In this document: positions 1-51,843 of the stretch, in pieces
Position numbering within the stretch: position 1 is the first letter of the stretch
How the letters are laid out: the number at the start of each line of letters is the position of its first letter
From: Felis catus
Taxonomy: Eukaryota
Reading direction: 5' to 3'
Assembly (NCBI RefSeq): GCF_018350175.1
Contig: NW_025408510.1
Coordinates: forward strand, 124,001-188,000
Length of the DNA: 64,000 nucleotides
Notes under the pieces: model-generated
The model's input: the letters and a program-made list of their open reading frames with translations, nothing else
Told to the model about the DNA's origin: nothing
Database searches by the model: none
Translations under genes and position numbers: made by a program

Positions 1-1722
1 CGAATGTCCTCATTATCAGCTCTCAGATGGGCTCAGGAGGCAGATGTACATGCAGGAAAGAGCACATTCTTAAGGGGATCAGCTGAACTACACACGAGAG
101 GAGGCATATTCCGGGGCGGAAACAGAAGCTCGGATCTGGCCTCAGGGGGAAAGAAATGAATCCATTGACAAAACCGAAAGATAAAAAAAAATCCACTTTG
201 GGAAAGATTCAGTGGTGAGAAAGACTTTCACCTGTTTTTCGTGAAATTCACACATCTCCTGAACGTTTTGTAATGGAAACTTGTATTTACCTCCAGTAAT
301 TTCCGAACATAACCGCAAAGTTCACGGGTCTGTGTTTTATCGAACTCTCATCAATCGTATGGTTAAAAAACTTGTGTCTACCGCATATCCTGAATTAACC
401 CAAAACAGAAGCGGCGAGGACAGGCCGGCAGGATTCAGGGGCTCCTGCCGGGCGCAGGGCCGTGGGGTACGGAGTACACATGTGCCCTGCAGTCGGGGGG
501 CCCAGGGAGGAGGAAGAGCCCACAGGACACACCCGCAGGCTAGGCAATGGACAGTCCCTCCAGGCTCGGGCTTCCTCATCTCTAAGCCACACCTGCTGGC
601 ACCTCTTTCCTTGGGAGCAGGCAACAGAAAGCACGACCACCACACCTCACACGCAGCAACGGCCATCACTTGGAAAAGACCCTGGCCACCCCACAAGAAG
701 GGATCGGCACCCAAGTATTTTTCAAGCAAAGCAGCTTAAAAGTGTCCTTGGAATTGTCTCAGTTATAATAGAATCCTTATCTCAACACCTGTCCCTCCAA
801 ACTACCATACAGTCCTAAAGGCAATGAGGTGCTTCTCTAAGTAGGTGAGGTCGAATTCTCGGCCCAAGAGGCTAGCGTCTGGTTGTGCTCACGTGTGTGC
901 ACGTGTCATGGCAGGCTGGGGTCGGCCAACACGAGCCGTCACGCTGGCATCAGAAGCTTCACTCCGCGGAAACTCATGTTTTATTCTCTGACCCTGAGGG
1001 CCAAGCACACGAGTTTCTGGTGTAAGTTAAGGGTGAGTGTTTTGAGTTTTCTGGTGAAAACAAAACCTGATGGCCTTGGATGGACGTCCCAAGTTGGGGA
1101 GGCTGCTGCCTGCTCTGTCTCCTGGGTGTTTCATGTTGACGTCCGACCAGCTCCCGCAGGGAAAAATCTCAGGGGATTCAAGGGACACGGGCCTCCCTTT
1201 CGTCAAGGCTCGATGACGCTATTCCTCTTCTTAGGAACATCTACCCCGACCTGTGCCTTTACATCTCAAGTAGAAAGTAGGATGTGGGGACCAAGGTCAG
1301 GCCCGTGACCTGATTTCAGGACCTCAGTGTCATGTCCTAAGGAAGGAGACCCCTCCTCTAGGCTGCCCTACCCCAGGCCAGTACCTCCGCTTTGGCCAAG
1401 GGACACCCACGAGGTCCCGCGTCAACCGTGAGGAGCTGCTAATGAGCTGGTGGGCACGGTGGGCTGTGCGGGTGCCTCCACCCCTAGGCGGCACTGCCTA
1501 CGGGGCCCCAGCGTCCAGAGAACATTGTCCATATGCTAGGAGTGTTCACTAGCATCCAACTCGCACAAGAGTGCACTGTACCCCTGATGGGATCGAGAAG
1601 GGGCCTGGCGTCCACGTGGGGAGAAGTGGGAAACAAGGCACCGCTCCCTACCCCGACACCCCCAGCCTGCGCCTCATCCTCAACCACTGCCAGGTGCGCG
1701 GCTGCTCCGCCCGGACACGTAC

Positions 1723-1806
1723 CCGCTGCAGTTCTTGGTTCTTTTCCTCCAGCTGGGCCTCCATCTGGCGCAGCCTTTCCTCGATGTTGCCACGCCTCTG
1801 CTCGGC
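1723..1806 (-). CDS. PPFIA1: PPFIA1-like exon 10 equivalent ([28 protein letters not shown]), left copy only
   Basis: 84 nt, cacag acceptor, gtacgt donor; translated by hand. Confidence 0.92.
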
Positions 1807-4233
1807 CTGTGGGCGACAGTGGGGTCAGAAGAGCTGGCTGCCCCACACCACACGCTGTGCCTATGCACGACATGCTGTGAGAGGCCTTCCGCCTGCTCAC
1901 AGTCCCTACCGGCCTCATGCGTGCCAGTGGGAAGCAGTGGGCTTCCATGCTGGTGACCGGGGGTAGGCAATGGTCTCGTCCCCACCCCGGGTCCCGGATC
2001 CTTGGACGGTGCCTCGTCCCCCGGCAGACACCCCTGTCCACTCAGCACGGACAGGAGGAAGCAGCAAGCGGAAAGAGCAAACAGGCGTGCTGCCTTCCTA
2101 ACCTGGGAAGTTACTTCCAACAATTTAGCTTCCTCAGCAGCACAGTGTCCAAAGACAAAGGGTCGGGCTACACGGCTGACCAGGGACAGGAGAGAGGACA
2201 GGTGAGAAAAGAAACGGAGACTTGACATGCAGATCACAAAGGAGGAGAGACTCTGTTGGAGCCTGGGCCTGTGGGCGCCCAATGCCGCCTGCCCGACTTG
2301 ATGGCAGCCTTGAGGGTCATTATCCCATGACGAACCCACCCCCCTTCCCACTGGGACCCTCACTGCACTGGAACCGGTGACACAGAAGCACCGACAGGCT
2401 CCCTGCTACAGGTTCCCTCAGCCCAGGTTCCGGAAGGATGGACTGGCTGCCCAGTCATGTGCTCCCTCGTCCTGTGTGCATCACTCGATCCCAGCACCGA
2501 CTACATTATGTCTGGAAACTACCTCTTCAACTGCTGCCTTCGTCCGTGGGTGGTGAGGGCTGTGAGAACTGGGAGGGCAGGGACTGTGTCTGGCATGTTC
2601 CTCGACTCTATTTGTGGAACCTCCGAGTGAATTCCTTAAAGATTTATTTCTTACAGCGGTGTCTGGGTGGCTCAGTCGGTCGGGTTCTGACTCTTGGCTT
2701 CAGCTCAGGTCATGAACTCAAGGTTTGGGCGTTCGAGCCCTGTGTCAGGCTCTGTGCCGATAGCATGGAGCCTACTTGGCATTCTATCTCCTTCTTTCTG
2801 CCCCTCCCCTGCTCATGTATGTGCCCAGGCTCGCCCTCTCTGTCTGTGTCAAATAAATGAACATTTAAGAATTTTTTAAATAAAAACGATTGTGTTTAAA
2901 AGAGGATAGGATTTTCTCATTTCTCAGAAAAATTCTATGCTTTTTGTTTTTTTTTTTTTCCTTCGGTAAGCTCTACACCCAACGGGGAGCTCAGACTCAT
3001 GACCCTGAGATCAAGAGTCCCAAGCTCCACTGACTGAGCCAGCCAGGCACCCCTGTCCTTCTCTTGCCCAAGGCTACTATCTTGAGCTTTGAGTCGCTGA
3101 CTTAACTCTGAAAAGCAGTGAGTCTTAGATGCAGCCAACGGCAAACAGCACACGTCGGACAAAACCGGAGGGAACAAAACTGGGGATGATGCCTGCCGTT
3201 TGAAAAGCATTCCAATCTCAGACAAAGTAGCCCCGAAAACAGATCTCAGCTGGTTCGCGGACTTTGGCACGCCGACGTTACCGGTGAGAAATGAGATACG
3301 AGAACGGACCGCCTTGAAAATGACATTCCCACCATGGGACCCAGAAGGAAACGGGGGCCCCACCTTGCAGAGGGTGGCCACCCTCTGGGCCGGCTCGGCT
3401 TCCACCTCGGGCAGCGACTTGGCCTTCCTCGGGGTCTGCTGCAGCTTCCGCTCCGCCACCTCCAGGCGCTCTTGCAACTGGCGGTTTTGATCCGCAGTCT
3501 AGGAAATGAAGGCAAAGCATCAAAGTGTAGCAAGTCTTCTCTCCGTTTCCATTTTTAATAAAGTGAAACAAAATCTAAATGCAGAGATCTACTGTTAGTT
3601 CTGACGGAAGCCAACAGTTTGGTAGGTGCTTCAGAGTGAACCTTTCCTTTCTGCAAGGAGTCACCCACTGCCTTGGTCCTCCTTTCACTACGCAAAACAT
3701 GTCTTGCCAAACTCTTTGCTCTTCTTCAGTATCTTCAAAGAAGTCTTTCCAAAGACAAAGTTCCCACACAGTAAAGAAAACCCATCTTCTGGAGGAGCTT
3801 GCTCGCTCTTCCTGACCAGTTAAGGAGAGAAGGGTTCGGTCCTAACCCTTCGTAAACATATTTATACTGGGGTCCGAGGGCTCGCTACATAGGACATTCT
3901 GAGGTGGGCACATCAGCCAGCACAGAGCTTCTGAGAGCATGCCTGATGCCAGTTGAGTTCTTTTTGGAAGTGTACCATTATTCAACAAAAACACTCTCCC
4001 TCTTGACCAAAAACGTGGAAAACTTCAACGTGGAAAACTTAGACACGAGATTTTTTGTTAAAGGACTTTTAGGGAAGCCGAGGTGGCTCAGTCGGTTAAG
4101 CGTCCACCTTCGGCTCAGGTCATGATCTCATAGCTCACGGGGTCAACCCCGCCTCGTGCTCTCTGCTGACAGCTCAGAGCCTGGAGCCTGCTTTGGATTC
4201 TGTGTCTCCCTCTCTTGCCCTCCACTGCTCATG

Positions 4234-4275
<42 letters not shown>

Positions 4276-7200
4276 GGCTCCCTTTCTCAAAACTAAATAA
4301 GCGTTAAAATTATATAAAGTCATTTTAAAAATCATGTAAAAGGTGAGGTTTTTGCAAGGTTAACATGTGTTGCCACAGACTCCTTCCATCTTCTGTGTGC
4401 ATATGGCTCTGTGTGTATATACAGACCGCGTATCATGCTTTAAAACCCTCCAAAATAAATCACATGCTGTACACATAGTATTTCACGATCTGCCCTATAC
4501 ATTCATGACTTGGAACATGTTACGTGCTCTCAAACAGCATTCCTCCATGTCATTTTAATGGCTTCCTAGTATTTCACTTTGATTATCATTTTGGGTCGAC
4601 TGACACATTTGACAAACACACCAGGCAAACTCACTCTGTTTCCAAGAAGCTGGATGTGGTTTTCCTGTTCAATGCCGGATGACCTGAGACAACCAAGGAA
4701 GAGACGTGCTGCTTCCCAAAACACAGGGTCTCACAGCCTCACGCCAGACTGTGCTTCTGCACCTGCCATTCCCCCCGATCTCAGGTACTAACCAAAATGG
4801 CCAGCTGCCTACACATTCCCGGCCACTCCCTGCTCCTTTGGAAACAGTGCTAACAGGCAACAGAGTAACGTGCATGTAAGACAAGACAAAGAAGGAATCA
4901 AGGAGGGGAGCCCCATAACATGCTTCCATAAAATTCGAAAGAATTAAACCCTGGACGATGAAGTAACCCCGCTGGTCAACACAAGATTCTAAGATCCTAA
5001 AACCTTGACATTGACACTTGGTCCTTAACTTGACTTGTAATTAATAAAAGTGGAATGAAGTTCAACGAAACCAACGACCTGTCGATGCAGAGAGTCCTTC
5101 TTTGCGATCTCGTTTTCAAGTTTATCCTTGAGGTCGTGCAGAGAGGTGGCTTTGTGCTGTGCCCTGAGGCAGCGCTTCTCAAGGGTAGTGATCCTGTCTT
5201 GCATGTCTTCCTTCTGGGCCATGGCCTACAGCAGGTATTTCAGAGGGAAAACAGGGAAAGAGTTAGCGTACGACACATTAAGACACTCCAGACACAAAAA
5301 CCGGGCGAAATCCTCATTTTCCAAACAAACAGAAAAGTAGCATCCTCGGGGCACCTGGGTGGCTCAGCCGGTGCCGCTCTGTGAGTTGGCGCCCCGCGTC
5401 AGGCTCTGTGCCGACAGTGCGGAGGCTGCTCGGGATTCTGACCAGTTACCCAGGCTTATTCTTTCCCATGTGTTCAAAGACAAACGGATAATAAAGTCTC
5501 CCGGAAGTCACAACCTCGGTTGCCTCTGGACATCATTGAGCTTTCCACGGAACGGCGACTTGCCTCTGGAGGCACACACCATGAGACAACCATCCTTTTT
5601 CCCGGGGAAAAGGTGGATGAAATCTCATCCAATTACCACAAAGTTGAAGCAGCAGTGTTAACAAATGGAAGCCAAACTCCACCTTTCATATAACTGGAAG
5701 TCATCTTCTGTACCCTCACCCTGTAACAACATTGTATCCCATGGTGTCTGACACTGCAAATGGAACCAGAAGGTCCTGCCCTGCGTTTCTTGTCCAACAC
5801 CGGAAAGATTCCTCTTCCAGTCCTCCGTGTTTACTAAGCAATGTATGTCAGCAGTCTCAAGAGTGAAAGTGATGAGTCCTAAGAAATGATTTTCTAAATT
5901 CTCTGCATATTGAACTCTGCTGAGGGGTCTCTCCCCACCTTTGCCAAACAACAGGTTATAGAATTTCTGCAAATACTTTTGTTTTAAATTCTGACACGAT
6001 CTCACCCACACTGAGGTACTAAACAGACTGCTCGTGCACTTACACCCTCGAGGGTCTGACAGGGTCTTCCCGAGGTGGCATTGCCGGGCTGGGGGTGGGG
6101 TGTGCGGGGACTGTCCGCAAAGGGCAGCTCACAGTGACAGGAGGAGGCACAGAGAAACCATCCTACCCTTACTAGTTTCTGTGACAATGATCAGATTCCC
6201 ATCGACGACCACACGTGCAGAAGCGGCCGCACTCCTCCATGACCTTACACCAGGACCGGCGGGCTGCCCCTCGCTCACTCTGACCGCCACGACCAGAAGC
6301 ACGGAACCCTGGGAGGAGGGCAGGGCAGCAGAGCCGCCCTCACAAGGTCGTGCCCCCGGAAACGACCTGGCAGCACCACGCTGGTTCCTACGTGCCGAGT
6401 GTGTTCCCAAAACGGACCGAGAGCACGGCATGGGCCAAGCTCAGGTGGCCCACACTCCACACCCGAGGCCACTCCGCCGCCTGCCCGCCAGGCCTCGGCA
6501 GGGGAGAGCCCAGGGAGGACAGATTCCACCACGCAGACGGGGAGGCAGCCCGCCCGGGCCCCAGAATCACGTCCCGTTCTGCTGCTACTTCTACCAAACT
6601 CCAAACGTTCAAAACCCGTGGGAGACGAAGGCACACTGGGCAAGGCCGAACCAAACACCCCACGTTTAGCTCGACGACGGCGTGGCCATCTCAAATGACA
6701 CTCACTTCACGGACATCTCTTTGTAATATGGTGTTCATTGCTTCAGAAAGGATGAGGTCTTTCCTTGAGATGTCTAGGTCCTCTTCCAGCTTGGCCATGA
6801 GAGTGCACAGGGTAGCCAGGAGCTCTTTCATCTGGCTCTGCACCTTTGAAACTCAGAAAGGGAAGCAACATGTGAGGGCCCCCACTGCTAGTCTTCATAT
6901 GTTGTTTTAAAAACAATGGATAAAAAGGAAACCCCCTCCAATCAAATCCTGGGATGATGTCTGGAGCTTGAACTCTGCGTGTGGCCCCTAATTCTTCTTC
7001 TACGAAACTACACCCCTCCAGTGCCACACGTAGCTGCTCTCTCACCTGGAAACCAAGGGATTGAGTTTGTACACAGAGGTGTTTCATTAGTCCTTACTCT
7101 ACAGTGACCCTAAGATCCCCTTCGCCGCAAATAACATGACAGAATGCTGGTAAGGTTTTTCACGGATGCTCCGGTTCACAAACTTGCTTGTTAACCGCTT

Positions 7201-7970
7201 TCAATTTTACATTGGAGACAAATCTTCCCCGAAATAAATTACATTATGCAATTTGTACTAGCCAATCGATACCCACAACATTTCCACCAACTACTGCTTT
7301 TTAACCATACAGACCTGTCTTCTTACAAGAATTGAAGAAGATGAAAAGGAAACTCCAGTCACACAAACACACAAAGTGTGCCTAGAACACACAGCATGTG
7401 CACAAACTGAGAACCGCCGTGGCTAGGCACACCGTTTCAGCCTCGGTTTTGTCCTTCTCCAATATGGAGTTGAGGACCTTGAGCACCTCCGCCTCACTGG
7501 ACACGCCGGCCGGAGTCTTCACCTGTCGCCCGATGATGGTTTTTTGAAGAGCTCTCTCGTGCCTGGAGACGAGGAACTCCAAATGTTCCAGCAGCAGCTG
7601 GCGGGAGAGGCAAAAGGAACACCGTGTTTCAAGAACACCTTCAATTCCGGGCCTCAAGTTCACCAAATGCAAAACCAAGTCTGAATCCCTTCAATTCAGT
7701 TCCCAGGTAGGGAGCCACCCCCTCGAATGTGTTAAAATAGCCTTACTCCTCCTCACGGATCAAAGAAGGTTTGAGAAAAATAGGTCCCAGCCAACTCCAT
7801 GGGGACATGTGGACAAGGGGAGTGAATGGTGTCCTGTGTTTAAAGACACTGGCAGTGCGCCTACTGACCCTGGTGTTGTTTCTCTCCGCCTTCAGGTTGG
7901 CGATCTCCTCCTCCCTCTGCATGAGCTGCTCCCTGCAGGTGTGGAGCTCTGCAGCGAGAGCTGCACACTC
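1723..7970 (-). CDS. PPFIA1: Liprin-alpha-1-like partial duplicate, left copy (7 coding exons, open spliced frame, continues off window start)
   Basis: Exons 7869-7970, 7433-7597, 6974-7045, 6706-6843, 5079-5225, 3364-3498, 1723-1806, all AG/GT flanked and phase 0, no stop in 281 codons. Peptides such as [33 protein letters not shown] and [23 protein letters not shown] are liprin-alpha-1 coiled-coil sequence. Too diverged to be the orthologue itself. Confidence 0.85.
2656..2885 (+). mobile_element. CanSINE (mirror 56848-57077 -)
   Basis: gggtggctcagtcggt head, CT-rich tract, A tail. Confidence 0.9.
2940..3053 (-). mobile_element. Short CanSINE (mirror ~56681-56793 +)
   Basis: ggggtgcctggctggctcagtc...ttgggtgtagagcttac + A tail. 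Confidence 0.85.
3364..3498 (-). CDS. PPFIA1: PPFIA1-like exon 9 equivalent ([21 protein letters not shown]...ATLCK)
   Basis: 135 nt, cctag acceptor, gtgggg donor. Confidence 0.92.
4071..4310 (+). mobile_element. CanSINE, felid SINEC_Fc type (mirror ~55425-55664 -)
   Basis: ggtggctcagtcggttaagcgtcc...ctgacagctcagagcctggagcctgc, (CT)n. Confidence 0.92.
5079..5225 (-). CDS. PPFIA1: PPFIA1-like exon 8 equivalent ([18 protein letters not shown]...DSLHRQ)
   Basis: 147 nt, tag acceptor, gt donor. Confidence 0.92.
5347..5440 (+). mobile_element. Internally deleted CanSINE fragment (mirror ~54297-54390 -)
   Basis: ggggcacctgggtggctcag head joined to caggctctgtgccgacagtgcggag. Confidence 0.75.
6706..6843 (-). 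CDS. PPFIA1: PPFIA1-like 3' part of exon 7 ([12 protein letters not shown]...LQRDVRE)
   Basis: 138 nt, putative new acceptor tttcaaag, strong gtgagt donor. Confidence 0.85.
6974..7045 (-). CDS. PPFIA1: PPFIA1-like exon 5 equivalent ([24 protein letters not shown])
   Basis: 72 nt, ttccag acceptor. Donor is a weak gttcaa, so the 3' boundary is less certain. Confidence 0.8.
7433..7597 (-). CDS. PPFIA1: PPFIA1-like exon 4 equivalent ([19 protein letters not shown]...KTEAET)
   Basis: 165 nt, cag acceptor, gtgtgc donor. Confidence 0.92.
7869..7970 (-). CDS. PPFIA1: PPFIA1-like exon 3 equivalent ([34 protein letters not shown])
   Basis: 102 nt, cag acceptor, gtcagt donor. Confidence 0.92.
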
Positions 7971-8574
7971 CTGGGGTCGGAGAGGGGACAAAAGTGGAGA
8001 GACACAGGGGGTCTTTACCAGAGCACACCAGGCCTCCGTGGCCCTCCAGAGTCCCAGCACCCACCACCCTCAAGTAGCATCACACACACCAGTCCCCTCC
8101 TCACCACCCACAGGAGTTCCGGGGATTCTCGGAGGGACCGACACTCAAGGGGACAGACATTTTCAGGTGCCTGGCAGGTCTAGGACTCAGGAACTCTGCT
8201 GACTCGGGAGCAACAGGCCGAGAAGCCTCCTGCCCATCCGCAGCCTCTGGCCTCATCTGGCAAGCAGGCTTGTGGAGCGGCAGTGGGGAAAGGCTGACGG
8301 TACTCAAAAGCTGCTGTTTTAGCCTGAACCCCTGGCTCAATCAGACTCAACCATACCCAATGGACTGTTCAAAAATGATGGTAGGACTCTTGACGAAAGG
8401 GCGAGTTTACGACTTCTTTCCTTAGTCAAGCAGGAAATATTATGGAGGAAGGGTTTCTGAGGAGAGTGATGCCAGGGCCCACCACCCCGCGTGGGGTTTC
8501 TCTCCCACAATACTGAGCGCCCGCCCAGGACATGGCGTACAGGTGGGCTCCAAGGAGGTGGACGCACTCTCTCC

Positions 8575-12467: not shown

Positions 12468-15164
12468 GCAGAACAGGAGCAGTTTGGAGGGTCCTTGTAC
12501 ACAGGGCAAACATGTTTCCCCAAACCACGTAGTTACCAAGTTGCTCAGCAATACCAAGCACTAAGGGCCAGCAGGCAGGACACAGGTTCAGGAAGAAAGG
12601 CCGTCTTCTCAGAGAGCATGGCGTATTGTACACAGATGGGGCAGAAAGCCAGCATCTCTGCACAGCAGGAGGCACCGCCCCCCCCCCCCCAGCCAAGATG
12701 CTGGCAGGCAATTGCGGCAGGAACAGGGAAGACTGCAGTACTTGGCCCCTCCCCGAGTCCACCCGAGTGAAGACAGGGTATAGATCTCCAGGGACCTCGC
12801 AGATGGCCTCTGAGAGAGGCAAGCTCCACACCACAGGACCCACGGACCAGCAAGGAGAGGGAAGAGCGGGAAAGAGGCAAAGCCATCTCCCTGGCTTCTG
12901 ACCACTGGACCAGGTAGCAAGCTGCTCTGTTCCCAGGAGGAGGCACAGGTGTGGGGAGGAGGGTGGTGGCCCGTGTGGAACTCAAAGAGCCCACAGTCCG
13001 CCCAGATGGAGCTTCACTACAAGGTGCTTGGAAAGGCGTCCGGGAGACAGAGCGGGGTGCATGAAGGAGAACACAGGGCAGCCGAACCTCCCAAGGAAAA
13101 CCGCCTCCCCGAGGCTGACCCACGCCGACCCATGGGACAAAACGGCCATCCTGCAGCCGCACGGTGCACACGTACCCCCTATTCCACCGAACCACACACT
13201 CCCATGCCCTTCTATTGCTCTCCGTAAAACCACATACGTCTCTGGGCGAGGTAACTGCAGCACATAGTGTTCAGCACCTAGTACAGTGCCTGCCATGCAC
13301 TCCAGAACAGGTGAATACTTTAGTGTACGCCTTGTACCCACACACGTACAATTACACACGCTGCTTTTAAACATTACGTAGTTCTGTAAAGGATATAAAG
13401 ACGCACACTGTCCTGTGCTTTATGTGATGGGTGATGTGAGGGGCTTGTACCTGTTGCCTAAAGCACGAATCTTAGAGCTCAACCCACGCATTAGAAGGAG
13501 CCACTCCACCCAATGACGTCCACACTGCATCCATTCTTGTCTCCTCCCCCAACCCACTATCCACACAGAACCAGCACCAGCTTTCAAAAAATTCAACAAC
13601 ATCATGCCAGTCCTTCCCACTGAGGACACAACGACCCCAGGTCCTTATCTGAAAACCCAACTCCTTACGGGGTAGGTTCTGTCCCAACACCAGCTGCCTG
13701 GCGCCTCACCTGGCTCCGCTTCCCCTTCCATCGCTTACAACAAAGCCAAGCTCTTCCTTGACCCCGGCCTTTGGCCCTGGAGTCGGACTGCTGGGAGAGT
13801 GCTCGGTCAGCCTCAGCTCCCGAGCGACCTCTCCGGAAAAGGCCTTTCCTGAACCACCGTGCGCAAGGAAGCAACACTTCCTCTTAACCCCTTCACTCTT
13901 TCAGATACACTCTTTCAGATGTGCCTCCACCACCATCTCCGAGGAACACAGCAGCCAGAGCCTGGCGACCACAATTGTGCAGAGTCACAAAGGGGAGCCA
14001 CAAAGGTGGGTGTTTGTGTCTCTGCAGATGGTTCGGGTGCACCAATACAGAAACCCTTGTTGTGGGGTTTGCACTGTACGCTTGAAGTGCATCCCGTCCC
14101 CAGCCTGCTTCAGATTCTGGGTCCCTCCATCTGCCCCTCTCCTGGCCACACTCTCTGTCTCTCTAAAAAGTAAATAAACATTACGAAAATTAGAAAACAA
14201 TGAACACTGATCAAACACTCAAAGTGTCAGTTAAGCCATCCACTTCCTCTGCCTGCCCTGCCACAGCCAGCCCGGCACCACAAAGCCCGCCCTGGGCAGG
14301 CACCTGACAGGGGAAGAGAGCGGTGGTGTAGGGGGGTGGGGCTGGGACGCTGACACCATCACCACCCCATGGACGCTGGCTGAGCGTGGGCAAACTGGAT
14401 GGTCATTTTAGAAGAACGATGGGTACTAGGCAAGGACTACTGGGTTTCGTTTTCTCCTGTAACAAATGCTGATGACCAAAATGTTCACTATGACTTCTCA
14501 CTCTTTTCCGGCTTGCTCTTATACGTGTGAGTAGTCTGTTAGTCAACCCATCATGAACTAGGAAAGATGAGTTCAATTTTAAGCAGTGTTTGAAGGCATC
14601 AAGGAGACACTGGGGCAGTCACAACTGGAAGGACTGAGACACCAACAAAAGGGAAGCCCCTGAGCCAACTCTAATGTTCAGAGTCCTCTCTCTCCCTCAA
14701 GGAATGTGAGGATTCTGAATTTCCTCAGGGACTGGAGGCAATATACCAACAAGCTGCAAAGGAAACCTAACAGAAAGGCAAGCAGAAAGTCGCAGCTAAC
14801 CGAGCTCTGGACAGCACAGGGAGGCACAGAAAATGAGCCTGGCACTCGACAAGCACTACCTGAGAAGCTGACCCTTCCATCATCTCATTGTGCTGCAGAG
14901 AAAATAACTGGGCTTTGGGACATAGCCCCAAGAAGGGGTCCTTGGAAATACTCCCGGCCTCAAGATGGAGACACTGGAGGACTACACGGGGGTGGGGGAC
15001 AGCGTGAGCCCAGCTCACACTGCACCTTACAAAGACTGAGCCCCAGTCTCAGGTCACTCACGCCTGACTGAGCCCAATAACCTCCACACTCGAGGTGTGT
15101 GGGATGAAATGCTGAAGAAATACAACCACACAAAGAGCCTCTATGCTTCTACATAATGTCCAAC

Positions 15165-20260: not shown

Positions 20261-21559
20261 TTAAGTTTACAAAAAATGATGAAAACCTTCTCTCTAGTAT
20301 CTGGAAGGAGACAAGGACACCTACTCTCACCACTTCCATTCAACACAGTACTGGAGGCCCGAGCCAATCCAAGGCAAGAAACATACAAATGGTTACACTA
20401 TTGGAAAGAAAAAAAAGAAACTTACCAAAAGGCAACACAGAGAATGAAAGGCAGGCATACCCAAGAATGTGAAAACCTCTGCCATTCACAGATGTATTCC
20501 ACACACATAGAAAGAACTCATTCAAATCAACAAAAACCAAAACACACAACCTAATCACAAAGTGGCTTCCAAAAGGCAATTATTTCACAAAAGAAACATG
20601 TAAGTGGCCAAGACACACACAGGGGCGGGTCCCACGAATACACCATACCTCCCAGCACCTGAGCCCCAGCAACCAGCTAACACACAGGAGAAGAGGCAAT
20701 ACCAGGCTTCAGCCAGCCCTGAGCTCCCTCACGCTGTTGCTCGAGGGGAGCAGACACGTGCCACCACTCACGCCCTGCTCCTCCAAGGCAACCCAATACG
20801 ATGCATGTGGATCTGCAGGCAGCCTCTGCACAAACCGGAGCACCCACAGGAGAAAGAATAAACCATGCTGTCCTCACACACTGGGCTTTCGACACCAGGG
20901 GAGGACCAGCACAGCCACACAAGGAAAGCAGGTGCATTGCACACACACAGCGCTCACGGGTTGGCTCAACATGAAGCGAAGAACAAGCCAAAGCCATCGC
21001 TGGTGAAAGTCAAGACTGTGGTTACCTTTGGGGGACGTTCGGTGGGAGTCAGTAGGAGGTAGGAAGCACCGTAAGGTTCCATTTCTTCATCCAGGTGGTG
21101 GTTCCAAGAATGTGTTCACTGAGTGAAAGATATGGAAGATCAGCTGAAAGCAGTGGCCTAGGATGTTCCAAACGTCCACCGCGTGCCACACAAAAATGCA
21201 GCTCTGTGCGGGCTGCTAACCCCCAAGAGAAGCAAGGAAGCCCCACCCATCTGAGTGCGGAATCAGGAAAGAGCATCCAGACACCCCAGGAGCTACCGCC
21301 ACACCCTCCTCGCCTCCAGCTGTTCATCTGGGGGAGTCCACATCGCCTTCCTAAACATAATTGGCCACAAGACACTGAATGCAGAAGCAGCTGGAAGAAT
21401 AAAGATCTTGCACTAAGCCAATGCCAATGCCAATGCCACCCTTCTACACAGTGTTGTTCTGAAAATGTACATATTTTTTCCCTAAAGTATGAAAAATATG
21501 TACTAATTTCTTGTCTTTAAGTGAATTCATCACATCTGAGATGCTCGGATTTGGTTTGG

Positions 21560-21762
21560 TTTCCTTAATGTTTGTTTTTGAGAGAGAGAGACACAGGGCA
21601 CGTGAGGGCAGGGGCAGAGAGAGAGGGACACAGAGAATCTGAGACAAGTCCAGGCTGGCAGCTGGCAGCACAGAGCCCCACATGGGGCTCTAAACTATCA
21701 ACTGTGAGATCACCACCTGAGCCAGAGTCGGACCCTTAACACAGAGAGCCACCCAGGCGCCC
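21560..21762 (-). mobile_element. CanSINE (mirror 37947-38149 +)
   Basis: gggcgcctgggtggctc...gccccatgtggggctctgtgctg. Confidence 0.9.
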
Positions 21763-22029
21763 GCTTCAATTCTCGGTTTAACCTCACCACAGAAGAGATC
21801 GAGAGACACAACCCCCACACACGAAGCCTCTCTGGGGCCCTCAATAATCCCCTGATGTCCAAGTGTCCCGACACCACCGAGTCTCAGAAACACTGACCCA
21901 GGGAACAAAGGGCACTCTCCCCTTCTTCTCGTCAACTTCCCAATTTCTATAGGGTTTCCCCAGCTCACCAGACTCTCTAGGGCCTGGCCCACAGGACGCA
22001 AGGGCCTAAGGTGGCCTTTGTTCGTGGCA

Positions 22030-22880
22030 GCCGCCTCGGGGGACAGAACGTGTGCAGCCTGTGCGGGGTCAGGGGACAGACAAGGCGGGAAGGTCTCCGA
22101 CAGCCTCTGCGAGGGCGGCCGGCACACTCCTCACACGACAGCCGCGGCTGAGGCGGGCACCCGGAGAACCTCCCAGAAGCCACTACCTGCAGTGAGAAGG
22201 GCCCTTACCGCCCCCCCAGCGGTTAAGCCAGCACTGCCACGGGAGGCGCCCCCACACACACCCCGCCGCCACAGAGCGGCCACCACGACTCACGGGAGCC
22301 TGCGGGCGTCCACACGGACAGCCCGGCCTTCCGCCCGAGGGTGGCCAAATGCTGTCCCCCAAGTGAGCAGAACCAGGGCGCCCCGAGCCTCACGGCGTCC
22401 CACGGCTGGCACTGGGGTCTCTGCAGGAGTCCGAGCGGCGCTGGGTCCACCAGAACTCACCTGCCTCGATCGGGACGGTCTTCGGAGAAACAGGGGCCCG
22501 GGGCGACCTCCTCGCAGGTGGAAGACTTCTAGCAAGGGAGAAACCGGATGCTCAGAAGAGCACCTCCCTCGCCCTCCACAGCGCATGCGGGCTCCTACCG
22601 CCTTCAAGAACCAGCCGGCCTCCCGCCCACCTCTGCGCCTGGTAAATGCGCTGTGGCGCCAGCACCAACGGAAACGACTGCGTCAGGGCGGAAAGACTAC
22701 CCGGTGGGACGCTGCACCGGCAGAGACTCCTCAACACGCACCCGCCCGGACGCACTGGGGTACAACGTCAGAGGCGAACCCGATTTCAGCTGCGGACCTT
22801 GGGCGATGGACACACATCAGCACAGGTTTGGGGCTGTGACAAAGGCCTCGCCCTGGCGGGGGGTTCGGATACCTGCTCAG
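22030..22880 (-). promoter_or_regulatory. CpG-rich putative promoter / first exon of left copy
   Basis: CpG-dense, GC boxes (cccgccc ~22622, ~22741), NRF1-like gcgcatgcgg at 22581, consensus donor CAG|GTGAGT at 22461/22460 pointing toward the liprin exons. Confidence 0.65.
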
Positions 22881-23364
22881 GGGAGAGGCTGTGCCTCAGT
22901 AAGGGCAGGTATGTGTGTGAAATCTCTGGAGGATCCTCTCACGTTTGCTAAAACTGCTCTAGAAAAGTAGCCAAGAAGCCAAAACCACCCCCAAAAATAT
23001 GCATGGGCGGACCTCCGTGCAATCATAACCCAAGTCTGTGCTCTTTCCAAGCCCCTCCCCCACCCCCCTCCTCGGCCACCGACAGGGGCTCGGGAGCCTG
23101 TAAGAGCCCCGATGACGCTGATGGGCCACGTTTGGGCCAGCTTCGGGACACCCTGGGCTACGTTGCAGCCTCGCTGCTCCTGATGGTCCATGTTTCCCAA
23201 AGCGCGAGACCCCCCACCCCTTGTCGCTTTTGGAGGACACACTGTGTCCCAGCAAAGCAGCAGTGCTGACTGCCCACCCACAGGCACACTCTGATCCGTG
23301 TGAGGTGGCATCTCAGTGTGGTTTTGCTTTGTAGTCCCCTGATGAGGAGTGACTTTGAGCATCT

Positions 23365-25852
23365 TTTCTTTTTTCTTGTATTCAATATAATTTATTGTCA
23401 AATTGGTTTCCATTCAACACCCAGTGCTCATCCCCACAGGTGCCCTCCTCAATGGCCATCACCCACTTTCCCCTCTCCCCCACCCCCCATCAACCCTCAG
23501 TTTGTTCTCAGTAGTTAAGAGTCCCTTAGGGTATGCCTCCTTCCCTCTCTGCAACCCGTTTCCCCCTTTCCCCTCCCCTCTGGTCTCCTGTGAAGTTTCT
23601 CAGGATGCACATATGAATGAAAACATATGGTATCTGTCTTTCTCTGCCTGACTTATTTCACTTGGCAGAACACCCTGCAGTTCCTTCCACGTTGCCACAA
23701 ATGGCCAGATTTCATCTTTTCTCATTGCCAAGTAGTATTCCATCGTATATAGAAACCTCATCTTCTTTATCCATTTGTCCATTGACGGGCATTTAGGCTC
23801 TTTCCATCATGTGGCCATTGTTGAAAACGCTGCTATAAACATTGGGGTACGAGTCCCCTGTGCATCGGCACTCCTGAATCCCCTGAATTCTAGCAGTGCT
23901 ATTGCTGCATCATAGGGTAGATCTATTTTTAATGTGGTGAGGAACCTCCACACTGTTTCCAGAGTGGCTACACCAGTTTTTCTTCCCACCAACAATCCAA
24001 GAGGGTTCCTGTTTCTCCCCATCCTCTTCAGCATCTATAGTGTCCTGATTTGTTCATTTCCGCCACTCCGACCGATGTGAAGTGGAATCTCAGTGTGGTT
24101 TTGATTTGTATTTCTCTGATGAGGAGTGACGCTGAGTATCTTGTCATATGTCTCTTGGTCATCTGGATGTCTTCTTTCGAAAGTACCTATCCATGTCTTA
24201 TGCCCATTTCATCACCCGATTATTTGTTTTCAGGTGTGGCGTTTGGTGAGTTCTTTATAGGTGTTTGGATACTAGCCCTGTGTCTGATACGTCATTTGCA
24301 AATATCTTTTCCCATTTCATCTGTTGTCTTTTTGTTTTGTTGCTTGTTTCCTTTGCAGTGCAGAAGGTTTTTATCTTGATGAGGTCCCTACAGCTCATTT
24401 ATGCTTTTAATTCCCTTGCCGTTGGAGACGTGTCATGTAAGAAATTGCCACAGCTGAGGTCGGAGAGGTTTTCTCCTGCTTTCTCCTCTCGGGTTTTAAA
24501 GGTTTCGTGTCTCACATTCAGGTCCTTTATCCATTTTGAGTTTATTTTTGTGTATGCTGTAAGAAAGTGATCTAGTTTCATTCTTCTGCATGTTGCTGTC
24601 CAGTTCTCCCAGCACCAGTGGTTAAAGAGTCTGGTTTTTTTCCATTGGATACTCTTTCGTGCTTGGTGGAAGATTAGTGGGCCGGGCCATACATTTGTGG
24701 GTCTGAATCTGGGTTCTCTATTCTGTTCCATTGGCCTATGTGTCTGTTTGTGTGCCCATTCCATACTGTCTTGATGATTACAGGTTGTAGCAGAGGCTAC
24801 ATTCTGGGACTGTGATGCCTCCTGCTTTGGTTTTCTTCTTGAATATTACTTTGTATATTCGGGGTCTTTTGTGGTTCCATACACATGTTACATGATTTGT
24901 TCTAGCTTTGGAAAGAATGGTGGCACGATTTTGATGGGGATTGCATTGAAGGTGTAGATTGCTTTGGGTGGTATTGACATTTTAACAATATTCATTCTTC
25001 GAATCCATGAACATGGAATGTTTTCCCATTTCTTTGTGTCTTCTTCAATCCTTCATAACCCTTGTATAGTTTTCAGCATACAGAACTTTTATATCTTTGG
25101 ATCGGTTCATTCGTATTTTTAAGGTTACTGATAGGTATTTTATGGTCCTGGTGCAACTAGGAACGTGATCAGTTTCTTTAGTTGTCTTTCTGTTTCGTTG
25201 TTATTGGTATATTAAAATGCAATGGGTTTCTGTACATTGCTTTTGTACCCTGTGAGTTTCCTGATTGATGTAGCAGTTCCAGGAGACTTTTGGTGGATTC
25301 TGTCAGGTTTTCCAGGTAGAGTATCGTGTGGTCTGTGAAGAGTGAACGTTTGACTTCATCTTTGCCATTGTGATGCCATTGATTTCACTTTGTTGTCCGA
25401 TTGCTGGTTCTAGGAATTGCAAAACTATGTTCAACAACAGTGGTGACAGTGGACATGCCTGTCATGTTCCTGATCTCAGGGGCAAAGTTTTCAGTTTATC
25501 CCCAGGAGAATTATATTAGCTGTGGGCTTGTATCATATGTGGCTTTTATGATGTTTTCATATGTTCCTTCTATTCCGACTTCCTTGAGGGTTTTTATTAA
25601 GAAAGGATGCTGTGTTTTTTCAAATGCTTTCTCTGCCTGTATTGACAGGATCATGTGGTTCTTACCTGTGATTTTCTTAATGTGATGTATCCTATTGGTC
25701 GATTTGCAAATATTGAACCAGCCCTATAGCCCAGATAGGAATCCTACTTGATCATGGTGAAAAATTCTTTTCATATGCTGTGCGTTTGATTTGCCAGTAT
25801 CTTGTTGAGAATTTTTGTATTCTCATTCATCAGGCATATTGTCCTATAGTCG

Positions 25853-25889
<37 letters not shown>

Positions 25890-26041
25890 GGTCTCTGTCT
25901 GGTTTGGGAATCAAAGTAAAGCTGGCTTCGTAGAATGAGTCTGGAAGTTTTCCTTCCATTTCTATTCTGTGGAACAGCTTGAGAAGCATAGATATTAACT
26001 GCTTTTAGATGTCTGATGGAATTCCCCAGGGAAGCATGTGG
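23365..26041 (-). mobile_element. 5'-truncated carnivore L1 (ORF2 3' part + 3' UTR), disrupted
   Basis: ORF2 peptides [46 protein letters not shown]; felid-type 3' UTR. Confidence 0.95.
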
Positions 26042-27443
26042 TGCAGAAAATGAGATAAATCTTAGGATGCAATGACTAGGACAACTCCATGGGAAGCCGA
26101 TGGTCTCAGGAATAAGATATGGATAGATATGAAACACATATGAGTAGGGCAAAGGGAAGCCTCTGTCGACCACCATGGGAACCCAAAGGCAAGATGCCTG
26201 TGTTCTTACTTCAGAAACAGAGGGAAAGCTTCTGGAGTTCACTGTTTTCCCTTGCCATCCTATCAGTGGATAGAGAAGACAGTGATTCCAAGGTAACAGG
26301 CTTGTGCTGCAGGCTGAGCTCAAATGTTTGGAACAGGGCTTGGATGCAGTAGTTCATGAATGGTCTCTTTCTGTGCTCAGCAGGTCCTCGAGAATACTGC
26401 CCATGGTGAACCAACTGTTCCTCAGAGTAAAAGAATCTTTAATGGCCAGGGAGGGAAACAAGTTGGCTAGCCATCATTTCTTCTACCAGCCACCCAAACA
26501 CCAAGTACTCTCAGGAAGGCAATCCTTCCTTTGGGATCTCAGAAACTGATTGCTCTTGGTTAGCACAGACCAGATTCAGAGCTGGTTAGGAGTGGCCAGC
26601 ACTCACTATGCAGGGGACAGTCTCATTGTCCTTGCCTGAGACCAGAGACATGGTTATCATTATGGCCAGGGAAATCAGAATGGCTAGAAACAGGGCCAAA
26701 GTGTTTCAGTTCAGCAAATTATGGAATCAAGCTGGGACAGAAATGTCTACCTCCACATTCCTCTTATCCCAGAAGGGAGGATAGCTCCCTTCCAATATCG
26801 GTGACCCTGACTCCACCTGAGCCTTGCTGCTGGGCACTTTGAAATCCCCTGGGCTTACCTTTGTCCACATAGTGCTCAAAGGCAGTTGTTGAGGGACCCT
26901 GTGGCCCAAGGGATCCCACGGTGACAAGAATATGGTCTGACACCCCAGTTAAAAGTAGAAAAAATGCCTCTGAGATACTGTCCTTGAGTGGACAAGGGAG
27001 AGAACTTGGTGGGAAAAGAGCAACAGGATGGAGAATGATACAGAGAAGGCCAAAGTTCTTTCTTAACACGAGAGAACACGATAAATCAAACACTGATGCG
27101 ACGAGCACAATCTCCTGATAGGATGGTTGCCTCAGGAGTAAGAACCATGTGTGGGCTAGGACCAAGGGAAACCTCCTGCAGTGTTTCTCCAGAAAGGGGT
27201 GAAAAGTTCCTGGCACTGGCTTTTGTTGCCCTGTCCTTTGAAGCCAGAATTGACACCCAGTTAGCACATTCTAGCTTGGGGCTAACCCTCAGATATTTGG
27301 AGAATGGTTCTGCTGCACCAGTCCTTGAGTGGGCTCGGTCCAGTACGTAGCAGATCCTGAAGAATATTGCCAATGGATGAAGTGTCTGCTCTGCACGGTG
27401 AAAGCATCTGTATCCCCCAGTGTTTGGAGTTCTACTGACGAAC

Positions 27444-28151
27444 TGATGAAGAATGGGGGCGATGGTGGGCGTGATCCAGAGCCCAAGACCAAGAAAGATC
27501 TCCTGAAGACATCTTTCATACAAAAAAGGTGATTTTATTAAACGATGGGGACAGAAACCACATGCAAGAAAATCTGCCCTGGGGTCCTGACGGGTAACTC
27601 ATTCTTACACACCATCAGGTTGGCAGGGTGTCAAGGATAGGGTTAGGCTTAGGGGGAAGCAAGTTTTCAGCACCTTGAGGACTAGGTGTGGCTAAGGAAA
27701 TGCCCTTTCTTACCACATAATAAAACCCAAGTCATGAGACCCATTCAATGTATATGGGGCGGGTGCATAAGCTTGGAGGAATACTGCCAGGATATACCTT
27801 GAGCAGTTGAAATAAAAGAAGTTGACTTGCAGGGTCTTCAAGGTTGGGATGATGTTAGGCTTAGGTTGTGTTTTGCCCCTAGCAAAGGGTCATCACCATC
27901 ACCGAGCAGCTAAGCTCCTAGAGGGATGTCACTCTATCCATTTCAGGGATTGTCAGTGGGCTATAAGCAGTGAGGGAATTTAATTTTCATTTGCCGTAGC
28001 ATCACACATTACCATGACAAGTGCTTAAGGCCCTTTTCTCTGCACTTGGGTGGTCAAGACTGTCCAAGGAATAACAATCATATTCCACCCAGGGTGGGAG
28101 GAGGGGCTAGCTTGTGCTTTACCCCTCAGCCTGCCTTATGCTCCCTCTTCA
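27444..28151 (-). mobile_element. ERV1-class 3' LTR (left copy)
   Basis: TG...CA ends, purine tract upstream, AATAAA ~90 nt before the end, adjoining env remnant. Confidence 0.7.
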
Positions 28152-29740
28152 TATCCTCCCTGAATAATGTCAACCCTGAAACCTTGAAGATGGATGAAGG
28201 TGGAAGGTCTCATCTTCTGTAGCTTCTTTGTGCTGAGTAGGGGCATAGAGTCGTCCCTACCTATATGGGTCCTTATTGGTCTCTTGGGAAACGTACAGAG
28301 GAGTTACAAAAGGCGGCGGCGGCTGAATCCAAGGTGGGCCTTCTTGAGTAGAAAGGCTCATCGTTTGGCTTCAGCAAGTGTAGTGATGGAGTCGGCACCA
28401 GGCAGAGAGGCATGGGAGAAACCAGCACAACAGAGTTAGGAAAACAAGAGAGAAGTGCTTTGGTAGTTGACAGACATGCTCAGTCCATGAGTGTAGCCAG
28501 TCACTAGAGGAAAGAGAGGCATTGTTGAAAGCGCCAGTTGAAGTATGCATGTCGCTCAGAAATCCAGAAATCCCTCGGTGGTAATCTGGAATGTATACAC
28601 AGCATTTTGTCAGAGCACATTTCAAACCCAGTGTCTACCAGTACTGCCAGTGAAGATTTCAGATGTGAGGCTTGAAGTATCCTCAGATGGAAGTGGGAAC
28701 AGGCAGCAGGAATCCGATTGGTCTTTCCAGTTGGGAACTCGAATGTCTGCAGTGATCCTTTGAATGGCCCATCGTAAGAAGGACCTGTTAGTATGAATTG
28801 AGAAAGGAAAGTGAAAAAGAAAGGTGCGACCATCCTAAGAGAGGCTTGAGGTCTCGTACAGGTTCCCCGGAATAAAAGGCACATTAGTTTGCCCACTGAC
28901 TAACTGTAAAGGGGGTAGAGGTTTTGTTTCGATACGGGAACCCATGAAGATTTCCCCTCTAAATGACTGCAGTAGGAAGACATAATACGATGTGGTAAGG
29001 GCCATTTATTTCAGGGTTAAATCCCCTGTTGCATGAGACTTTCCATCTTTTGAACAATTAGGTCTGGGGGTTTATATGGGGTGAGTTTCGAGTAACTGTC
29101 AGGTCAGGTGTAGGGAGGACATGGTTTGCATACTTAGAGATTTATAACTTAACTCAGCTTCAAGTGGATACTACAGCACTGTCTATTGACAGGTCTAGAG
29201 TGAGAAAAGATCTTGTACACAGTTGTTGGGGAAACCCATCCCATTTTCAAGCTGTTTCAAGATTATATCCAGGGGGTCCTCTTACTATGCCCACAGGAGA
29301 ACAACAAGGTTGTCCATACCTGTGCTATTGTGACAGGATCTCTCAAGGTTACCTCACGTTGTCTAGTTTAGGCAAACATTTGAAGACAACTAGGATTTAA
29401 CATCGATAATGTGCATTGCTGAAGTGTAGTTTTTCTCTCTAAAAACCCTCTTTGCCCGAGACAGTCAAATCCAGACTAATTCATCTGCAAACGAGGCCAC
29501 TCTTGACAAACTTGGCCTCATTATTTCCATAAGCTCTGCAAGAAGAGTCATTGATCCTAAGGATCTTTGAAAGCATGCTTTACTTTACTGGAATCCCTTC
29601 TAAGGAATCTCCAGACTGAAGCTTTGTAGCCTCTCCAGGCCGGAAGCCAAACCAAGTACTTCCTGTCAGATGGGCCTGCAATACCAGTGGAATTGGGCGA
29701 ATTCCTCTTCACGAGGTCCCCAAGATATCCTGAGGTTCCT
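28152..29740 (-). mobile_element. ERV internal fragment with env TM remnant
   Basis: Minus-strand CALTKCCVYIPDY at ~28581-28619 resembles the class I env TM C-x(n)-CC motif. Confidence 0.75.
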
Positions 29741-29755
29741 TGCCCCTCCCCCACT

Positions 29756-29806
<51 letters not shown>

Positions 29807-30495
29807 TCCATAAAGGATAAACATAACAAAATCTTCTCTCACGAAACCTGTTTCATATCGTAGGAGATTCACAAAATAAATACTTTTAGGACAAATACAG
29901 GGATTTGCAATCTTTCAGATTCCTACTAAAAAGGGTAAGTATTTCGAGAACTCAAAAGCTATATTCCAACTGAACCAGAATTAGGAAGAGGGGCCTAAAT
30001 GAATTGAGGAAGATTATAGTTTTGTGAGTCTTGCTGGAAATCTTGCTGCTTCTCTAATGTTTGCTGTTCTAGATGAAGGAAACATTCTCTGCTCTTCAGG
30101 TGTCTCTACTATGCAGAGATGTCAGCAACTATTCACTTGTCAACTGAAGCCTTGACCTTCCCTCTGTACCTAAATCTTCTGAAATTCAAACACTCTCTGT
30201 GAGTATTCTTCCTTTCATGGCCATTACAGGTATTTGCCTACGTGCAATAAGAATCTCTTGCTTGTAACAGGACACCTTTGGAAATACTGGTTACTTTCCT
30301 ATGGCTTTGACTGGAATGTCCTATTTGAGAGACATGCATAGACTCAGAAATGACACTACAGCTTCGAGGAACTAAGGTTGACGTGATGTAACATGGAGCC
30401 ATTAAAGCCCCTTGGAAATGTTTTCCGGATACCTGGTTCCCAGAGTTCCCAGCGCCTCACCAGGCGAGTAAAGAATGTCCCTTCCTGGCAGGCAC
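29741..30495. other. Palindrome spacer (~755 bp): SINE-tail-like (CT)n tract then unpaired ERV-internal-like sequence
   Basis: No mirror partner. (CT)n at ~29759-29808. The remainder is continuous with the right-arm ERV sequence. Confidence 0.85.
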
Positions 30496-31561
30496 AGGAA
30501 CCCTAGGATATCTTGGGGACCTCGTGAAGAGGAATTCGCCCAATTCCACTGGTATTACAGGCCCATCTGACAGGAAGTCCTTGGTTTGGCTTCTGGCCTG
30601 GAGAGGCTACCAAAGTTCAGTCTGGAGATTCCTTAGAAGGGATTCCAGTAAAGTAAAGCACGCTTTCAAAGATCCTTAGGATCAATGACTCTTCTTGCAG
30701 AGCTTATGGAAATAATGAGGCCAAGTTTGTCAAGAGTGCCCTTATTCGCAAATGAATTAGTCTGGATTTGGGTATCACAGGCAAAGAGGGTTTTTAGAGA
30801 GAAAAACTACATTTCAGCAATGCACATTATCAATGTTAAATCCTAGTTGTCTTCAAATGTTTGCCTAAACTAGACAACGTGGGGTAACCTTGAGAGATCC
30901 TGTCACAATAGCACAGGTATGGACAACCTTGTTGTTCTCCTGTGGGCATAGTAATAGGACCCCCTGGGTATAATCTTGAAACAGCTTGAAAATGGGATGG
31001 GTTTCCCCAACAACTGTACACAAGATCTTTTCTCACTCTAGACCTATCAATAGACAGTGCTGTAGTATCCACTTGAAGCTGAGTTAAGTTATAAATCTCT
31101 AAGTATGCAAACCATGTCCTCCCTACACCTGATCTGACAGTTACTCGAAACTCACCCCATATAAACCCCCAGACCTAATTGTTCAAAAGATGGAAAGTCT
31201 CATGCAACAGGGGATTTAACCCTGAAATAAATGGCCCTTACGGGATCATATTATGTCTTCTTACTGCAGTCATTTAGAGGGGCAATTTTCATGGGCTCCC
31301 GAATCGAAATAAAACCTCTACCCGCTTTACAGTTAGTCAGTGGGCAAACTAATGTGCCTTTTATTCCGGGGAACCTGTACAAGACCTCAAGCCACCACTG
31401 CCTTTGTAACTCCTCTGTACGTTCCCCAAGAGACCAATAAGGACCCATATAGGTAGGGACGACTCTATGCCCCTACTCAGCACAAAGAAGCTACAGAAGA
31501 TGAGACCTTCCACCTTCATCCATCTTCAAGGTTTCAGGGTTGACATTATTCAGGGAGGATA
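29810..31561 (+). mobile_element. ERV internal fragment, right copy, env TM segment deleted
   Basis: Mirror of the left fragment without 28325-28846, extending ~0.7 kb further into the spacer. Confidence 0.65.
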
Positions 31562-51741: not shown

Positions 51742-51843
51742 GAGTGTGCAGCTCTCGCTGCAGAGCTCCACACCTGCAGGGAGCAGCTCAGGCAGAGGGA
51801 GGAGGAGATCGCCAACCTGAAGGCGGAGAGAAACAACACCAGG
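51742..51843 (+). pseudogene. PPFIA1: PPFIA1-like exon 3 equivalent, right copy
   Basis: Mirror of 7869-7970; AGG (R) where the left copy has ATG (M). Confidence 0.9.

Follow-up and report, generated by a model that had tools for sequence, protein, structure and literature searches.

Human SRGAP2C is a truncated duplicate that acts on its parent, and it is a point of reference for the locus described here, a truncated duplicate of PPFIA1, the gene for liprin-alpha-1, in the domestic cat (Felis catus). The DNA analysed is a stretch of 64,000 nucleotides (G000:C25:124001-188000, hereafter the window) that is mostly one palindrome, and the copy on which we concentrate lies on the minus strand of its left part. 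Like SRGAP2C, this copy is a partial, intron-containing duplicate in which the dimerising part is kept and the effector part lost; unlike SRGAP2C, it is far older, more diverged, multi-copy and chimeric at its 5' end, and its function is a predicted one. Liprin-alpha proteins are described as self-assembling through the coiled-coil region CC1, binding ELKS and RIM through CC2, and binding receptor phosphatases, CASK and liprin-beta through their SAM domains (PMC8044993), and residues 1-344 of liprin-alpha-1 (liprin-N) are reported to be dominant negative in cells (PMC5034239). Unlike liprin-N as described there, the cat copy extends through CC2 and is strongly diverged, and its binding is only predicted. 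As far as the core-duplicon families NPIP, TBC1D3 and LRRC37 have been described, the cat family shares with them that it is lineage-limited, copy-variable, mosaic, fast-changing and located in segmental duplications; it differs in its parent gene and lineage and in that positive selection is not established for the cat copies. In the account of PMC8327919, palindromic ampliconic genes of mammalian sex chromosomes are gene pairs in inverted arms more than 99% identical with signs of conversion, as seen here; as a point of difference, one of the cat copies is found on a chromosome-scale contig of 88 Mb that is not the parent's.

We give about even chances to the reading that this locus belongs to a young, multi-copy, intron-containing family of PPFIA1 duplicates, found here only in the cat family, whose reading frame has been selected and whose predicted product, a coiled coil without SAM domains, would uncouple liprin-alpha-1 and ELKS from receptor anchoring. 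The family is of a truncated, chimeric and amplified kind and is present in NCBI and UniProt as 'liprin-alpha-1-like' models; in the literature searched, a paper on its origin or selection was not found, and supplementary gene lists of felid and ruminant assembly papers may name loci. PMC5517113 mentions PPFIA2 alone, and nothing pertinent turned up with the terms used in PMC11216403, PMC13047762 or PMC13311821. The left copy has the following parts, with exons given in what we take to be the usual PPFIA1 numbering, in which exon 2 is the first coding exon:

7869-7970 (102 nt), minus strand: exon 3 equivalent (CC1, start of helix H2), 8 of 34 residues changed
7433-7597 (165 nt), minus strand: exon 4 equivalent (CC1, end of H2 and start of H3), 21 of 55 residues changed, weak donor
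6844-7432: interval between exon 4 and the exon 7 part, containing dead exon 5
6974-7045 (72 nt), minus strand: dead exon 5 (75 nt in the parent), which has lost the parent donor and, at its end, 2 nt
6706-6843 (138 nt), minus strand: 3' part of exon 7, with a possible new in-frame acceptor
5079-5225 (147 nt), minus strand: exon 8 equivalent (N-terminal part of CC2, RIM-binding surface in the parent family), 11 of 49 residues changed
3364-3498 (135 nt), minus strand: exon 9 equivalent (CC2), 10 of 45 residues changed, including two new prolines
1723-1806 (84 nt), minus strand: exon 10 equivalent (CC2), 2 of 28 residues changed
G000:C25:123755 to 111932, left of the window: exons 11, 12, 13, 14, 17 and 18

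The initial annotation had joined seven minus-strand segments (102, 165, 72, 138, 147, 135 and 84 nt) into 281 open codons with roughly 70 replaced residues. These segments are open, and comparison with this genome's own parent PPFIA1 (G000:C21) gives 71 differing residues out of 281, 69 of them on the branch of the copy when bat, bear and human proteins serve as outgroup; its counts for exon 4 (21/55) and exon 10 (2/28) were also borne out. Its statements that no frameshift is present and that all segments are flanked by AG and GT break down at the 72-nt segment, where 2 nt are deleted and the GT in question is not the parent's donor, and its splice model overlooks both gene ends and the family. 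Exon 5 was rejected as a working exon, given its lost donor, its 2-nt deletion and a joint into or out of it that was never listed in six sequencing runs, four of them with a full joint list. The deletion that removed exon 6 also opened exon 7 and left its 3' part, where an ATG at 6831 starts a 388-codon frame reaching exon 18. None of the stops that might have lain just beyond the window edge was found: the frame continues past 1723 through exons 11, 13, 14, 17 and 18 to a stop at G000:C25:111932 in exon 18, about 500 codons in total, ending ahead of the SAM domains. Exons 15-16 and 20-23 are missing by deletion, and decayed exons 19, 24, 25 and 26 remain beyond the stop. Three details of splicing stand beside this structure. 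Exon 12 (G000:C25:122263-122325) is open with both splice sites present, is skipped by most models and is included in one clouded-leopard model; the parent's non-standard GC donor after exon 14 (G000:C25:117622) is retained in all six copies that hold the exon; and a base at 7521, unique to the two window arms, makes a possible extra donor inside exon 4, which the database models P0123 and P0170 use and for which no RNA joint was seen.

The predicted product matches CC2 in Pfam (PF25526, E=5e-79) and gave no SAM hit there, and its exon 4 part partly matches the H2 and H3 structures 7D2H and 7D2E. Eight of the nine CC2 positions named in PMC12151379 are unchanged in the copy, which is only compatible with binding of liprin-alpha, ELKS or RIM. 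A complete CC1 (H1, H2 and H3) is not present, exon 2 being absent and exon 5 dead, and the three SAM domains are gone with the deletion of exons 20-23 and the stop in exon 18. From exon 3 to exon 18 the copy follows PPFIA1 in exon order, phase and splice sites, and the two also have CC2 in common and introns that are 84% identical; the copy differs in lacking exon 2, a complete CC1, exons 15-16 and the SAM domains, in its new 5' exons and in its many copies, and about 30% of its residues are changed, whereas the parent differs little from the bat protein. The protein would thus retain CC2 and part of CC1 without the N-terminal exon, the exon 15-16 region and the SAM domains, and would enter or dilute liprin assemblies without binding LAR-type phosphatases, CASK or liprin-beta; acting as a coiled-coil partner of these assemblies could be its simplest predicted function. 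Liprin-alpha-1 is nearly invariant across mammals and lineage-specific offspring of it are not described in the literature searched. The cat amplicon is a natural test of the role of a SAM-less liprin coiled coil.

To evaluate the open frame, we mutated the parent exons at substitution and indel rates derived from the introns, assigning 50-90% of the divergence to the copy, in four settings of 1500 runs each. The 281 codons of the first model stayed open in 0-2 of the 1500 neutral runs per setting, in line with the proposal of the initial annotation that the frame was maintained. Across the 11 used exons, in which the open frame and all inherited splice sites are present, the 473 compared codons stayed open in none of the 1500 runs in any setting (Poisson probability 9e-6 to 1e-9), the neutral expectation being 3.8-6.4 stops and 7.8-14 frameshifts. 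The disabling lesions of an unprocessed pseudogene are absent from these 473 codons and present in other copies. Beyond the stop, exons 19, 25 and 26 carry seven lesions and exon 24 (59 codons) is intact; the chance that five lesions would all fall within the 168 codons past the stop, and not in the 473 before it, is 0.001 (seven were seen). For dead exons only the replacement fraction was taken from the simulation, the lesions beyond the stop being checked by alignment. Exons 3 and 4 alone remain open by chance in 2-13% of the neutral simulations, and the case for a kept frame therefore rests on exons 7-18. The open frame over 473 codons is not due to chance and was likely held open by selection.

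The 5' end of the copy is new and involves a second gene, as shown by the following segments:

21026-21128, minus strand: new start exon from PPFIA1 intron 2 (5' edge approximate)
22462-22533, minus strand: 5' exon from an internal coding exon of CTTN (cortactin), with the CTTN donor kept
13710-13877, minus strand: alternative upstream segment used by database models of other copies, its ATG reading GTG in both window arms

The copy begins within PPFIA1 intron 2. The new start exon, an 83% match to that intron in the parent, carries an ATG at 21082 that gives 19 new N-terminal codons, and its donor is not present in the parent intron; loose ends join it to exon 3 in runs X13, X14 and X2. Upstream, 2.1 kb (21136-23272) align at 77% to the interior of CTTN on G000:C21, the downstream neighbour of parent PPFIA1, and the exon derived from it lies in a CpG-rich stretch (22001-23000). 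We take the source gene to be CTTN from its repeat motifs, which were found in the sequence. This exon is joined to exon 3 by a loose end at one contig end in X14, and on this single observation one transcript combines exons of two parent genes. Capture of the CTTN promoter was ruled out, since the borrowed piece is internal to CTTN and lies about 22 kb beyond the CpG island of that gene. Another alternative 5' exon, at about 20427-20600, is joined to exon 3 in one X2 contig.

The gene is one member of a multi-copy family. Within the window, its mirror image and the palindrome are arranged as follows:

2499-28324: left arm of the palindrome, 99.2-99.8% identical, inverted, to 31390-57234
31390-57234: right arm of the palindrome, carrying the mirror gene on the plus strand
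51742-51843, plus strand: exon 3 of the mirror gene
52115-52279, plus strand: exon 4 of the mirror gene
52869-53006, plus strand: part of exon 7 of the mirror gene
54512-54658, plus strand: exon 8 of the mirror gene
56237-56371, plus strand: exon 9 of the mirror gene
57235-64000, plus strand: remainder of the right-hand copy, with exon 10 deleted and exons 13 and 14 open

Exon 11 of the right-hand copy is broken and of an older paralog type, and its exon 12 contains a stop. A search of the same genome with exon 4 gave 19 matches, namely the parent (74%, contig C21) and 18 others (85-100%) spread over contigs C22, C24, C25 and C26. These 18 comprise five full-length copies, four that end after exon 10, five that run from exon 4 to part of exon 7, and four old, frameshifted ones; the exon 4 donor is gone in nine of the 18, and exons 3 and 4 are frameshifted in the oldest paralogs. 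Introns of the copy types diverge by 2-20%, and one family copy lies on the 88-Mb chromosome-scale contig. C24-C26 are small and possibly overlapping contigs, so the count of 18 is provisional. With its multiple copies and inverted arms more than 99% identical, the family has the form of a palindromic ampliconic one, and, in a part of felid genomes where assembly is poor, it is a candidate for copy-number variation.

Ten felid species, from Felinae as well as Pantherinae, have modelled relatives, with open database models in Felis, Prionailurus (two species), Leopardus, Lynx (two), Acinonyx, Neofelis, Panthera and Herpailurus; P0007, a database protein labelled Felis catus, matches the exons of this copy. 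Of the 54 sites co-changed in the cat and clouded-leopard proteins, 44 carry a shared derived residue, and the family thus originated before big and small cats diverged. Among the best 120 rows of three protein searches there was no member from hyena, mongoose or dog, and the position of the family relative to the hyena is unsettled in the protein tree (support 72). A short interspersed element (SINE), presumably of a feliform type, stands at the same place in copy and parent. The origin probably followed the split from dogs. The sequence shows that a PPFIA1-CTTN segment was copied, leaving an internal CTTN exon upstream of PPFIA1 intron 2; exons 1-2, 6, 15-16 and 20-23 were deleted and the exon 5 donor lost, with a new start exon formed and a stop arising in exon 18. 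The family would then have spread by palindrome amplification, conversion between copies, and copy birth and death, its residues changing about neutrally while stops and frameshifts were purged.

Transcription was assessed in six of 24 listed runs (X13, X24, X21, X6, X14 and X2), which carry no tissue label. In X13 the exon bins reach about 1,000-4,700 versus 15-45 in intron bins, and joints link exons 3-4, 8-9 (3498/5079) and 9-10, with loose ends that reach exon 11 and the new start exon. The exon 3-4 joint (7597/7869) was seen in X13, X14, X2, X24 and X21. X24, a poly-A run examined as raw reads, has the same joints 3-4, 8-9 and 9-10 with 1, 3 and 9 reads, and a loose end of 12 reads that splices the exon 7 part to exon 8; its first mates lie on the plus strand, which means RNA from the minus strand, given the usual stranded library. 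X21 holds single reads at joints, and X6 is flat across exons and introns and behaves as DNA. The 388-aa protein P0124 lies on a 1,402-nt contig with exons 7-18 in order, which must be a spliced sequence because these exons span about 19 kb of the genome.

Several observations weigh against the reading of a selected, functional felid family. It is built on DNA and RNA, and its product is predicted; the replacement rate is not under neutral; the copy lacks residues 1-88 and 178-264 of the dominant-negative fragment as delimited in PMC5034239; and of the five full-length copies in the assembly, only two have all 11 exons and their splice sites undamaged. The database models are automatic, with open frames by design, and disagree at the exon 4-7 junction. 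A joint from exon 4 to exon 7 was not listed in any of four runs. Exon-level depth in X13 and X24 instead runs across 7432-6844, the main RNA being one 892-nt exon (7597-6706). In this read-through RNA a stop follows 16 codons after exon 4, leaving a frame of 124 codons from the new start exon, and the 388-codon frame is preceded by at least nine upstream ATGs; it could be decayed or poorly translated. Most RNA letters belong to sister copies, as mosaics that match no assembled copy (13 of 13 X24 reads at two exon 10 sites; 6303 of 7221 in X13 depth), and this copy's own letters in exon 3 were found only in X2. The read-through is partly explained by the nine copies that lost the exon 4 donor. 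Depth over this interval is close to background in X2 (24-45 versus 92-114 for exons), so that a spliced form could exist there, although a joint was not listed. Near 7252, four X24 reads end in long poly(A), and the 124-codon frame is all that an RNA of this kind would encode. Separately, 65-83% of the words of the mostly intronic 5000-8100 are present in gut and other metatranscriptome runs; these perhaps come from host DNA of a high-copy locus and are no evidence.

Given these data, the array may once have been coding and now be transcribed and decaying, its frame kept on the felid stem, its main RNA today unproductive and its copies dying. Early-stop read-through transcripts dominate X13 and X24, three of the five full-length copies and all 13 partial ones are broken or shortened, nine of 18 lack the exon 4 donor, felid models end at differing places, and the differences between recent copies are mostly replacements. 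Against such decay, exons 8-10 are open in all aligned felid models, exons 9-10 show 0/73 differences between this copy and a clouded-leopard model, spliced expression is high in X13 and a spliced 388-codon frame exists, and the X2 interval is near background. We judge that the array is rather unlikely to be in this state.

The alternative that the family is an adaptive new gene turns on the replacement rate, and here the open frame and the high replacement count are separate claims, the first well supported and the second at neutral level. In the used exons 146 of 473 residues differ from the parent (about 30%), with a pairwise ratio of nonsynonymous to synonymous rates (dN/dS) of 0.64; in the dead exons of the same copy it is 41 of 157 (26%) and 0.66. 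These pairwise values correspond to about 1 on the branch of the copy, because the parent protein hardly changed, with a range from 0.8 to above 2 depending on how the neutral divergence is split. At non-CpG non-degenerate sites the counts are 88/704 and 23/248 (p=0.21), so that replacements in used and dead exons accumulated alike, at the neutral rate. Of the initial annotation's proposal of a frame maintained during fast evolution, the first half is thus upheld by the simulation and by the decay beyond the stop, and the second is undercut by dead exons that differ equally; the 25% replacement is not shown to be a sign of adaptive evolution. The uneven distribution of replacements it had pointed out is weaker than it seemed (chi-square over the seven segments p=0.085; exon 4 versus exon 10 p=0.004, a post hoc pick), and among exons synonymous differences are at least as uneven as replacements (p=3e-5 versus p=0.002), for which reason the contrast between exons 4 and 10 is not protein-specific. 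Exons 8-10 may be constrained (7/188 versus 23/248, p=0.03, also a post hoc choice).

An early, post-duplication episode of positive selection for a new partner, for example in the germ line or in genetic conflict, with amplification for dose, would nevertheless agree with part of the data. The intron comparison with the parent has 5,249 differing columns out of 33,344 (K=0.18, 84% identity), and the old pseudogene branch looks neutral, with 0.077 at both site classes and 0.073 in introns. With old paralogs as third sequence, the branch joining parent and stem has changes at 43 of 482 non-degenerate sites, more than a clock-based neutral stem of 0.02-0.04 would give (p 2e-4 to <1e-12), but significance is lost if, of the intron divergence of 0.088, at least 0.06 fell on the stem (p=0.007-0.8). 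On the branch leading to this copy the count is 35/482 against an intron rate of 0.050 (p=0.02); set against four-fold sites, this recent branch is at about 0.8 (35/482 versus 11/117). The protein stem length is 0.30 versus about 0.07 within felids, and amplification is repeated in other mammals; the dead exons, however, need the same high rate on the copy branch (26% versus 16-18% simulated under an even split), and the direction of base change can be explained equally well by a parent gaining GC or by a long stem decaying towards AT. A burst of early positive selection is possible under the clock assumption, and we consider the adaptive gene as a whole to have a low probability. The direction of CpG changes, tried as a means of splitting the divergence between branches, gave no split either way. 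AT/GC change is balanced on the branch of this copy (73:96 and 152:185), while old copies are AT-decaying (149:78 and 477:167), a pattern expected if conversion among active copies is GC-biased.

Much less survives of an ordinary unprocessed pseudogene that is open by chance or through the picking of one open copy out of many. Its replacement level and pairwise dN/dS equal to those of dead exons, and the intact exon 24 past the stop, are what it would lead one to expect. An open frame of 473 codons would however arise by chance at about 9e-6 to 1e-9, four or five old lineages to choose from do not rescue it, and the lesions are placed past the stop (p=0.001), which leaves it very improbable and close to refuted. 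That the assembly created the palindrome and the copy number around a single duplicate is scarcely credible: at least 15 copies do lie on three small, possibly overlapping contigs and the expressed haplotypes equal no assembled copy exactly, but the arms differ by 0.2-0.8% and a deletion, copy types are 2-20% apart in introns, and other felids have several models each.

Separate expansions of PPFIA1 were found in ruminants (Bos, Bubalus, Ovis, Capra, Capricornis, Budorcas, Cervus and Rangifer), colugo and horse, in sets made up of automatic protein models only (including P0198, P0213, P0314, P0321, P0093 and P0003); the colugo set is a cluster of 19 near-full-length models. The ruminant proteins lack exon 2 and SAM matches in nine of nine cases and exon 5 in five of nine. 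In the tree, eight ruminant proteins group with cattle PPFIA1 (support 91) and the horse copies with horse PPFIA1 (100), the ruminant protein P0320 having been excluded for gaps. A common origin with the cat copy was discarded, as shared derived residues at co-changed sites number 2/22 for Bos, 4/22 and 4/24 for caprines, 0/8 for colugo and 1/5 for horse, versus 44/54 for the clouded leopard. Ruminants, colugos and horses thus likely amplified PPFIA1 independently of cats. One cattle liprin-alpha-1-like locus is placed between 5S rRNA genes in the account of PMC11882585. Tentatively, and with the chances against it, PPFIA1 may be a repeated source of amplified genes, from which cats and ruminants would independently have built a multi-copy, fast-changing, SAM-less gene running from exon 3 to exon 18 and mostly without exon 5, with colugos and horses amplifying PPFIA1 too. 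If true, the same truncation arising twice would point to one selected role; the germ line would be its most plausible setting, and the product would there antagonise the parent in a dose-dependent way or take part in genetic conflict, and the similar design of the ruminant family makes convergence directly testable.

The remaining observations concern the centre of the palindrome and its flanks. The centre (26000-33700) holds a retrovirus-like remnant, in which the frame 28371-28634 resembles an envelope transmembrane part (no Pfam match), and an inner inverted pair (28843-29744 and 30491-31393, 95.5% identical) flanks a CT repeat. The segment 23300-26000 and its mirror 33700-36400 contain what we take, from the translated frame 25771-26004, to be a fragment resembling LINE-1 (a long interspersed element; no Pfam match), and in both arms this fragment lies directly upstream of the CTTN-derived piece.

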